DNA of 64,000 bases. It comes from a virus. The stretch lies in IMG/VR virus record IMGVR_UViG_3300023235_000014; one strand, written 5' to 3'. Positions 45,392-47,512 of the stretch are shown piece by piece; positions within the stretch are counted from its first letter, which is position 1; every line of letters starts with the position of its first letter. A program made the position numbers and the translations under genes. Below the pieces are notes generated by a model. That model was not told the origin of the DNA, searched no databases, and worked only from the letters and a program-made list of their open reading frames with translations.

Positions 45392-47512
45392 TCAAAAAAC
45401 CTGGGCCGCTATTAAACAGCCTTTTGCGACGCTATGCAATGGATCGGAAGCATGGCGGACTTCAGAAATTTCTAACGGGAATCCGTGTTCAAGCAATTTT
45501 TGCTCAAGAATTTCAACAAACCCATCTGCTTTCGATGTGCCCCCAGCGACCACGAATGACAAAGGTTTTGAAAACTTAGGAAGAGAATTTGATTCCTTAA
45601 AATGCAAAACTAAGTTTTGCACAACGTAATCAATTAACCTTACATAGTAAGCTTGAACTGCATCTAGTACGGGATTTTCGTTGGCAACACCAACCGTAAA
45701 TTTTCCATGTTCTTTTTCAGCCTGTACAACCGAGTCTGATTCACCAGTAGCTATAGACGCCATTCGGTCGATCCAATCACCCGATTTTGCAACACTGAAT
45801 TTCATAACAGGTTCACCATTTAGCATCACGCATACATTTTGCATTCCTGCCCCGCAGTTGTGGATTGTGAGAAATGGGCCAGAAAAAGAGTGGTCTTCTT
45901 CTACCTGAAGGTCGTAAACGGCCCCGCAATATTCCTCATGTCTAATATCCTGGACCCGTGAGCAGATAAAGCCGTCGTCGAGGAAAATGCGTTCTGTCGT
46001 TTTACTAGTTTCACATGTCACATTTTTGATATATTCAACCATTGAAACGGAACTCATTTTACCAGAAACTGAAACTACCCACTCTCGTTTCTTTCCTGAA
46101 ATTTGTCTATCGTCGACAATACCGCCTGGTCGTGGTTCTCTGTAATTTGTTGCAGCCGCAAATCCAAGCCGAGCACACAGCTGTCGTGCAAGCCAAATGA
46201 GGTGTGTATTGGTGTTACTGAAACGAAATCCAACATTTTCGAAATGGCCGTCTGAACGAACCAAACCAGCTAAAAGATTGGCACATTCAGACTTCGAAAG
46301 TCTGGACAAGTCCCATGGAAAATATTTTTCTTTGTTGTCGTTGTATAGGTGACCTGAGAACCAGTTTGCTAACCCTTTAGAATAACACTTAATTCGCAAA
46401 CAGCCGTCGCCTTTTGGAATTACCGTACAAGCTTTATTGAAATTCCTTGCAAGAATTTCTTGCACATCTTGAATATTAGCTTTTTCGGCAATGCCAAAAT
46501 CAAATTGCACACATGATTCGGACAGATTGACACTCCCGTCGCCTAGAAAATACCCGACAAGCCGTTGAACGTTCGGTGAACACGAAACACGTGTTTTGGT
46601 ATAATCACTTGAATTTGTTTTGCGTTCACACAACGTTATTCCTGGTTGCCCTTTGCCGAAACGATTTCGTTTCGCAATACGCTCTCCAACAATTTCTCCG
46701 ACTGCAAGTTCTTCACATCCAACCCACTGCCAGCGGTTATCTCTTTTCACATAAAGTTCGTGGTTATCAACAAATTTATAATCCTCGAAGTCGTTTGAAT
46801 ACCCTTGCAATTTTACACTTGTAGATACTCCTTCAAACTGTTTGGTAACTACATTGTTTACTTGGCGCCACCTGCCTTTGTGGGTAAAAACCTCATCACC
46901 CTTTTGTACATCTTCTATGTTTGTGATTCCTTTTCTTGTGTAAATTTTGGTGCCAGGAACAAGGCAGGAGAGCGCAACTCCTGTATAGTCATCATTTTCA
47001 AGCTCCGAATAGCAGAGAGCTTCTGCCTCATTGATTGCACGGGCCTGATAACCTTGTTCCAGTAGAATCTTTGTGACAACATCCTCGTGGTAGCCTACAT
47101 CGAACTCATCATCCTCTTGGTCAATTGGTTGTGCTGGGATACAGAAGACGAGCTTCTCATTCTTCTTCTTGGCTTTGCCTACTACCTCTTTTAGGATATA
47201 AGAGAGTACTTTGCGGGCATGCTTCTCTTTCGCAGAGACAACTCCACGGTACATTGGGCGCTTTGCGGAGTCGTTACGCTCAACAGCTTTTTCGATTGCA
47301 TCCATACCAAGTAGGATGAATGAACCATCCTCCTCATCCTTGACAAAAATTTTGTCCTTGAGGCCCTTTTCAATCATTTTGGTGGCTATGGGTGTGCTTG
47401 GCTTGATTACATAGAACGCATCACGGAAGTCCTTGAACTCCACACTTCCTTCTTCTTTGCCCTCAGAAGCCTTTACTACAAATGACGTTCCCACGTCCAA
47501 CCCAACCGTCAT
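45392..47512 (-). CDS. Actin-like ATPase (MreB/ParM/Hsp70-fold) interrupted by an in-frame intein
   Basis: Exteins: 'VGLDVGTSFVV' (phosphate 1). 'GVALS|CGAGMQNV' (phosphate-2-like DxGxG site split by the intein). 'FVVAGGTSKADGFVEILEQKL' (adenosine motif). Exteins total about 336 aa. Confidence 0.65.
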   Translation of the reverse strand: MTVGLDVGTSFVVKASEGKEEGSVEFKDFRDAFYVIKPSTPIATKMIEKGLKDKIFVKDEEDGSFILLGMDAIEKAVERNDSAKRPMYRGVVSAKEKHARKVLSYILKEVVGKAKKKNEKLVFCIPAQPIDQEDDEFDVGYHEDVVTKILLEQGYQARAINEAEALCYSELENDDYTGVALSCLVPGTKIYTRKGITNIEDVQKGDEVFTHKGRWRQVNNVVTKQFEGVSTSVKLQGYSNDFEDYKFVDNHELYVKRDNRWQWVGCEELAVGEIVGERIAKRNRFGKGQPGITLCERKTNSSDYTKTRVSCSPNVQRLVGYFLGDGSVNLSESCVQFDFGIAEKANIQDVQEILARNFNKACTVIPKGDGCLRIKCYSKGLANWFSGHLYNDNKEKYFPWDLSRLSKSECANLLAGLVRSDGHFENVGFRFSNTNTHLIWLARQLCARLGFAAATNYREPRPGGIVDDRQISGKKREWVVSVSGKMSSVSMVEYIKNVTCETSKTTERIFLDDGFICSRVQDIRHEEYCGAVYDLQVEEDHSFSGPFLTIHNCGAGMQNVCVMLNGEPVMKFSVAKSGDWIDRMASIATGESDSVVQAEKEHGKFTVGVANENPVLDAVQAYYVRLIDYVVQNLVLHFKESNSLPKFSKPLSFVVAGGTSKADGFVEILEQKLLEHGFPLEISEVRHASDPLHSVAKGCLIAAQVF
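45857..46966 (-). mobile_element. Intein (370 aa) with a LAGLIDADG homing-endonuclease domain
   Basis: Begins 'CLVPGTKIY' and ends 'FLTIHN', followed by Cys. Two LAGLIDADG motifs: 'LVGYFLGDGSV' and 'ANLLAGLVRSDGHF'. Confidence 0.85.

Follow-up and report, generated by a model that had tools for sequence, protein, structure and literature searches.

What kind of gene occupies positions 45392 to 47512 of a 64,000-nucleotide stretch of viral DNA (IMG/VR record IMGVR_UViG_3300023235_000014; this whole stretch is called the window below), where a single open reading frame (ORF) appears to hold both an actin-like protein and an intein? A first-pass annotation, made from the sequence alone, had proposed a LAGLIDADG intein in the phosphate-2 motif of a phage actin-like ATPase. 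Our analysis indicates that the gene is very probably the precursor of a phage actin-like ATPase of the Volactin family, with its phosphate-2 loop interrupted by a canonical class-1 intein that carries a LAGLIDADG homing endonuclease. The gene is laid out as follows.

45392-47512, minus strand: precursor gene for a 706-amino-acid (aa) volactin-like actin-fold ATPase plus intein; uninterrupted ORF, stop codon at 45392-45394
46967-47512, minus strand: N-extein, aa 1-182, with GVALS as its C-terminal residues; carries phosphate-1 (GLDVGTSF) at 47480-47503
45857-46966, minus strand: intein of 370 aa, precursor residues 183-552 (CLVPG...TIHN), predicted class 1 with a LAGLIDADG homing-endonuclease domain
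45395-45856, minus strand: C-extein, aa 553-706, beginning with CGAGM (the remainder of phosphate-2); adenosine motif VVAGGTSKADGF at 45518-45553
45394-45421, minus strand: terminator-like hairpin and T-run at the gene end, by consensus match only

The intein boundaries that had been proposed, a Cys start and an 'HN' end followed by Cys, are exact to the base and correspond to Cys183, His551-Asn552 and Cys553. Excision in silico joins exteins of 182 and 154 aa into a 336-aa protein whose junction reads GVALS|CGAGM, as predicted, and restores a full-length Volactin match. In the precursor, the Pfam Volactin model matches as two stretches (E 7e-59) that flank LAGLIDADG_3 and Hint_2 matches, both above their curated cut-offs; in the spliced protein it matches once, with protein residues 1-333 covering model positions 1-321 of 321 (E 1e-65). 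At the DNA level the spliced junction, which is the intein-free target form, reads ...GCGCTCTCC|TGCGGGGCA... (also written ...ACAGGAGTTGCGCTCTCC|TGCGGGGCAGGAATGCAA...), and an intein-free allele with Trp at position +1 (locus L001) reads ...CTTTCA|TGGGGTGCT... at the same place. The 120 best relatives of the spliced protein are all intein-free and run without a gap across the junction; they are 332-336 aa long (a few have 379 aa) and 69-85% identical to it. Assemblies from JGI, ENA and Logan contain the identical 706-aa protein on 17 contigs; the four independent ones whose DNA was compared are 100% identical, 2 kb upstream included. These records exclude an assembly artefact, and the same lack of variation makes the four contigs uninformative for a selection test on polymorphism.

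Do the ligated exteins really make an actin? An AlphaFold2 model of the spliced protein (predicted local distance difference test score, pLDDT, 83.7; predicted template-modelling score 0.84) takes up an actin fold of two RNase-H-like domains; among solved structures it comes closest to MamK, MreB, BeeR and eukaryotic actins (E 1e-13 to 1e-11, 12-18% identity). Judged by its sequence and its model, the host protein is an actin-type ATPase fold and a member of the Pfam family Volactin (PF25216), for which it scores 222.7 bits against a cut-off of 35. The label 'MreB/ParM-like' used in the first-pass annotation therefore needs to be divided: it stands for the fold, which is actin/MreB/MamK-like, and falls for the family. 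MreB_Mbl reaches 28.1 bits on the spliced protein, barely over its cut-off of 27 and across positions 55-182 of 327 only, it stays under the cut-off on the unspliced precursor (23.7 bits), and the ParM Pfam model does not match the spliced protein. Filing the gene as an MreB was rejected because this partial 28-bit match stands against a full-length Volactin match of 222.7 bits. A search for a PHROG family of the extein found none.

The spliced protein contains phosphate-1 (GLDVGTSF), the connect-1 residue Glu162 and the adenosine motif VVAGGTSKADGF, and across 66 diverse family members D6, G8, T9, E162, G184, G186, D209, G287 and G288 are invariant or nearly so. The intein does fall in the phosphate-2 hairpin: it is inserted at the end of strand 178-183, ahead of the G-A-G turn, in a protein motif that is among the few invariant columns of the same alignment. 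A HMMER comparison, itself weak (E 0.2), pairs SCGAG here with DIGGG in BeeR. With MreB, MamK, BeeR and ParM the protein thus has in common the fold and the phosphate-1, connect and adenosine motifs, and it differs from them in its 15-18% identity and in reading S-x-G-A-G at phosphate-2 where they read D-x-G-G-G. Like the volactin HVO_2015 it shows a full-length match to the family model (1-321/321) and an actin fold; unlike haloarchaeal volactin it belongs to a tailed phage, has a small membrane protein for a partner and carries inteins. As for size, intein-bearing members of about 805-812 aa (P0129-P0132 and P0136) have an extra Lys/Glu/Pro-rich N-terminal extension of about 100 aa before the actin fold, and many intein-free representatives have long N-terminal fusions, with totals of 450-1160 aa.

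The insert, for its part, can be read block by block.

46928-46966, minus strand: block A, CLVPGTKIYTRKG, with the Cys1 nucleophile, invariant in 108 related inteins
46748-46780, minus strand: block B, YKFVDNHELYV, with conserved His69 and Val in place of the TxxH Thr
46532-46561, minus strand: LAGLIDADG motif 1, LVGYFLGDGS, intein aa 136-145, Asp143 catalytic by position
46247-46276, minus strand: LAGLIDADG motif 2, LLAGLVRSDG, intein aa 231-240, Asp239 catalytic by position
45884-45919, minus strand: block F, VYDLQVEEDHSF, which aligns with block F of PI-PkoII (2cw7) at a weak E-value
45854-45871, minus strand: block G, LTIHN plus Cys+1 of the C-extein

All four splicing blocks and both of the LAGLIDADG blocks noted earlier are thus present, and an intein profile search places LAGLIDADG_3 and Hint_2 over their cut-offs. 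Among 108 same-site inteins, conservation reaches at least 95% at Cys1, the block B His, both LAGLIDADG Asp residues, block F, His-Asn and Cys+1; block A follows the pattern CLxPGTKIYT, and a few members show KN, SN or RN in place of HN in block G. The AlphaFold2 model of the precursor, built from a 78-sequence alignment, has a mean pLDDT of 87.5, and the residues modelled with low confidence coincide exactly with the two splice junctions (179-184 and 553-555). Motifs 1 and 2 form helices 313-325 and 407-421 of this model. Sequence matches of the intein to solved structures are marginal (best E 0.08, with a nanobody ranked top), so that a comparison of folds was needed: in Foldseek, the insert of the precursor model retrieves PI-SceI (9e-16), TliVMA, PhoVMA, PI-PfuI, PI-PkoII and the free-standing endonuclease I-DmoI, with E-values from 1e-15 to 1e-12 for the intein fold against PI-SceI, TliVMA and PI-PfuI. 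By these motifs and this predicted fold, the insert is a canonical class-1 intein with a two-motif LAGLIDADG endonuclease. What it shares with PI-SceI (from yeast VMA1), TliVMA, PhoVMA, PI-PfuI and PI-PkoII is Cys1, the block B His, blocks F and G, His-Asn-Cys+1, two LAGLIDADG motifs with their acidic residues, and a HINT plus endonuclease fold; what sets it apart is the Val for Thr in block B, a marginal sequence similarity and a host protein that is an actin-fold ATPase.

How widespread is this arrangement, and does the intein move? A search with the whole precursor found 120 clusters, about 700 aa in length, that share its architecture, and the intein lies at the identical S|C-G-x-G position in at least 108 of them. 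Related inteins also occupy a site two residues downstream (site a', SYG|...HN|SGM) and another 24 residues downstream (site b, FSxxK|...HN|[S/C]GDW), and mini-inteins of about 140-165 aa occur in the family. The first-pass annotation had called phage actins rare and an intein in one rarer still, which is right for the literature and for cultured phages and wrong for the sequence databases, with more than 100 intein-bearing clusters. Within the family the intein is nevertheless a minority trait (a related one is found in 14 of the 150 best 50%-identity representatives); it is sporadic in the query's own subfamily, and no other related intein was found in the window.

The inteins do not track their hosts. 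The query intein is about 53% identical to the others, and 60% to the nearest, with exteins averaging 38%; over 5565 pairs, intein identity and extein identity show a Spearman correlation of 0.16. In one pair, P0124 and P0152, the inteins share 97.5% identity and the exteins 33%, and such near-identical inteins in divergent exteins point to recent horizontal movement; no co-conversion tract between these two is visible past the conserved motif. The residue at +1 is Cys in all intein-bearing alleles. Close intein-free alleles have Trp (86/120) or Cys (31/120), and intein-free alleles more widely have Phe, Cys or Met, so that many of them, if invaded without co-conversion, would not splice. The locus seems to draw different mobile endonucleases: in the closest intein-free relatives a free-standing HNH_3 endonuclease gene lies directly downstream of the actin-like gene (11120-11839 in L001 and 6713-7432 in L002), and it is missing at the corresponding position of the window.

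The gene itself carries a mosaic signature. Compared with its nearest relative, which has no intein (P0003), the N-extein is 94% identical and the C-extein 62%, a gap of 32 points that exceeds the maximum of 23.9 (mean 3.1) among 7140 intein-free pairs; where the N halves of an intein-free pair reach at least 88% identity, the C halves average 90%. The GC content at third codon positions (GC3) falls from 0.489 in the N-extein to 0.359 in the intein and 0.338 in the C-extein, against 0.455 ± 0.037 in the other genes of the window, where all 63 chunks of equal size lie above the C-extein value. Because of this drop in GC3 and the split in identity, the simplest reading would be that a relative of lower GC content supplied the intein and the downstream half of the gene together. 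The first deviations of the C-extein from the subfamily consensus (Q188, V204 and A205) are common to intein-bearing alleles and an additional protein, P0001.

Several observations pull the other way and have to be set against this account of a functional, mobile intein in an actin-like ATPase. Block B has Val instead of the usual TxxH Thr, its sole departure from the textbook pattern, and the Pfam model Intein_splicing scores 25.7-27.7 bits, under its curated cut-off of 35.8. No intein-free allele with the junction VALS|CGAGMQN, allowing for degenerate wobble positions, was found in IMG/VR or the JGI metagenomes, and without an empty-site version of this exact allele, current mobility of this copy is not supported. 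DNA conservation at the insertion point, computed over 82 intein-free alleles, comes out average (0.78, the mean being 0.763; 360th among 979 windows), for which reason the argument that the intein sits in the most conserved DNA target was rejected at the nucleotide level. The short partner gene upstream of the actin-like gene likewise has a low GC3 (0.37), which weakens the argument from composition. Finally, the phosphate-2 position holds Ser instead of Asp in 122 of 123 intein-free representatives, and ATP hydrolysis may as a result be atypical.

Could the intein still splice while its endonuclease has become inactive in this lineage, leaving it as a fixed, vertically inherited passenger late in the homing cycle? 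The missing empty site would fit such a history, as would the four identical contigs, the distance of 60% identity to the nearest other intein, and the existence in the family of mini-inteins that lack the endonuclease. On the other hand, both catalytic Asp residues and the whole endonuclease domain are intact, conserved and modelled at high confidence, and the near-identical inteins in very different exteins argue that the family is mobile now. We regard a fixed passenger as unlikely, if far from negligible, and favor an intein that retains its capacity for homing.

In what kind of genome, and next to which genes, does this actin-like protein occur? The window carries a gp23-type major capsid protein, tail sheath paralogues and baseplate genes, and is that of a very large, uncultured tailed phage, a T4-like myovirus, which bears out the phage origin assumed at the outset. 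Megablast of 22 kb of the window gave no match among GenBank phages; for the capsid protein, the closest relatives belong to uncultured huge phages, and next come Flavobacterium and Microcystis myoviruses. Intein-free homologues of the actin, 33-36% identical, are found in uncultured phages of 485 kb and 595 kb. Among metagenomic proteins, relatives of the gene form 1776 clusters at 90% identity, and at 50% identity there are 977 representatives of the family, 280 of them at E <1e-30; in IMG/VR there are 472 loci, on contigs of up to 461 kb. In 185,579 species genomes, scanned with two peptide patterns of the close subfamily, that subfamily was nearly absent, with hits on six short contigs of metagenome-assembled genomes whose taxonomy or binning is inconsistent.

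Directly upstream, as the first-pass annotation had it, lies a gene for a membrane-anchored protein.

47538-47867, minus strand: partner gene; product of 109 aa, with a single N-terminal transmembrane helix (47811-47867) and a basic tail

The partner gene ends 25 nt ahead of the start of the actin-like gene and is called as 109 aa on independent contigs too; the N-terminal hydropathy of its product is high (Kyte-Doolittle mean of 2.87 over a 19-aa window). A recognisable homologue stands directly upstream in 68 of 82 related loci, and such homologues are 30-58% identical where the actins are about 70% identical, the one in L001, at the same position, being 58% identical. The actin and membrane-protein genes are a conserved two-gene module with a fast-evolving partner. 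This pairing resembles the filament plus adaptor or anchor systems of bacterial actins, in which MreB works with RodZ, ParM with ParR and AlpC with AlpA. Like AlpC/AlpA of the Corynebacterium prophage CGP3 and the Alp families of Bacillus phages, the module consists of a phage-encoded actin fold beside a small partner gene; unlike them, it shows no detectable sequence relationship to those actins, and its partner is a membrane protein rather than a DNA-binding adaptor of the kind known from phage Alp systems. AlpC is required for efficient replication of its phage's DNA (PMC4446434).

Would the mature protein then be cytoskeletal, or is it an actin-fold ATPase that makes no filaments, for example a chaperone-like or kinase-like enzyme of the ASKHA group? 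Besides the Ser at phosphate-2, the latter would suit the low identity of 15-18% to any solved actin-like protein (at TM scores of 0.6-0.68 for the spliced-protein model) and the comparison with predicted viral structures, where the extein has no close neighbour (identity at most 16%) and the best matches are mostly Hsp70-like proteins. However, the best solved matches, named above, are all filament formers, and the spliced-protein model has the size and four-subdomain layout of MreB, with neither a substrate-binding nor a lid domain. The small membrane protein next to it also recalls the filament/partner pairings already mentioned. Moreover, the Pfam family is named after a protein, volactin HVO_2015 of Haloferax volcanii, that forms dynamic filaments in vivo which touch the membrane at their tips (PMC10869688). 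A non-filament role therefore appears improbable, and we continue to view the protein as a filament-forming actin homologue.

Based on these comparisons we can outline how the gene might work. The precursor would splice itself by the standard four-step class-1 pathway: an N-S acyl shift at Cys183 would be followed by trans-thioesterification onto Cys553, then by cyclisation of Asn552, helped by His551 and residues of blocks B and F, and last by an S-N shift that would release the 336-aa protein with its loop GVALS-CGAGM restored. As the intein splits the nucleotide site, the unspliced precursor should be inactive. The conserved catalytic residues further suggest endonuclease activity and homing, in which the freed 370-aa intein would cut intein-free alleles in co-infecting related phages and be copied into them by repair. 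The mature protein would probably form nucleotide-dependent filaments that work with the upstream membrane-anchored protein, whose cytoplasmic basic tail would be a plausible filament anchor or adaptor. Candidate roles for such filaments are the positioning of replication or assembly, or the reshaping of the host cell.

Co-option of the intein for use as a post-translational switch, with conditional splicing (by redox state, for example, as it contains 13 Cys in 370 aa) timing the appearance of active actin-like protein, strikes us as very improbable: an insertion in the catalytic loop would indeed keep the precursor inactive, and insertion at nucleotide-binding sites has been argued to permit regulation (Novikova et al., PMC4760082), but most close relatives are intein-free, and a sporadic distribution with horizontal transfer fits a selfish element. 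A broader proposal is that very large T4-like phages carry a two-gene cytoskeletal module missing from the catalogues of cultured phages, a volactin-type actin with its fast-evolving membrane anchor, which would build membrane-tethered filaments during infection, and that a hotspot of three intein sites within or beside the phosphate-2 hairpin would delay or gate assembly until splicing has taken place. We offer it tentatively, as an idea more apt to fail than to hold in its entirety.

Other genes of the window carry features of their own.

954-4034 and 5166-8180, plus strand: two neighbouring tail-sheath paralogues, each of about 1000 aa, which is far above typical sheath length
14189-16111, plus strand: gp23-type major capsid protein, 640 aa
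17761-19806, plus strand: 681-aa protein with a TnsA-like endonuclease N-terminal domain and an N6/N4 DNA methylase domain below the Pfam cut-off
38184-40922, minus strand: 912-aa protein with a Major Vault Protein (MVP) shoulder domain (84.6 bits) and Vault_3 and SPFH signals
41012-42028, minus strand: glutamine-synthetase-like gene
49979-52039, minus strand: 686-aa protein with a weak RNA-ligase domain below the Pfam cut-off; conserved and syntenic in L001
Starts at 25588, 42881, 43599 and 43988, plus strand, and 49968, minus strand: small proteins with a common N-terminal tag; a C-terminal copy of the tag at 21647, plus strand

Ordinary T4-like capsid proteins cover about 60% of the 640-aa capsid protein, in two pieces. 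Coverage of 99% is reached only by the uncultured 484-kb phage LR756508.1, and the protein thus carries a large extra region specific to its lineage; it showed no intein domains. The vault-domain gene adjoins the glutamine-synthetase-like gene, a pair that is kept in L001, and its 912-aa product has no sequence match among solved structures. Phage MVPs have been described in a 2023 preprint (10.1101/2023.11.10.566534).

The tag shared by the five small proteins reads M-x(3-6)-[KR][ER]RW[QR]xLAG[IL], often followed by L-x-E, and it also occurs in L001, L004 and L022, always at 4-7 residues from the start Met. A common targeting or processing signal is one possible role; T4 offers a comparison in its capsid-targeting sequences and prohead-protease sites.

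What, then, is new here? The intein itself is an ordinary member of a well-known class, and it is its host family that is unreported in the literature we found: no published natural intein in an actin-fold protein came to light, and the intein and jumbo-phage surveys consulted mention none. Inteins usually favor the nucleotide-binding loops of ATPases (PMC4760082), and an actin-fold host widens their host range in line with that rule. Phage actin-like proteins such as AlpC are known, and by sequence the Volactin-like phage family appears unrelated to them. Automatic annotation splits such genes or mislabels them, for instance as 'intein/homing endonuclease', with the consequence that the actin is easily missed.

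In summary, this locus draws attention to a large, phage-restricted volactin-like clade with a conserved membrane partner, on which we found no experimental study in the literature. With three nearby insertion sites, full-size inteins as well as mini-inteins, nearly identical inteins in very divergent hosts and a gene whose mosaic breakpoint is visible at the intein, the family is well suited to the study of intein mobility. Of the two, it is the module of actin and membrane partner, rather than the intein, that we consider the more promising lead.

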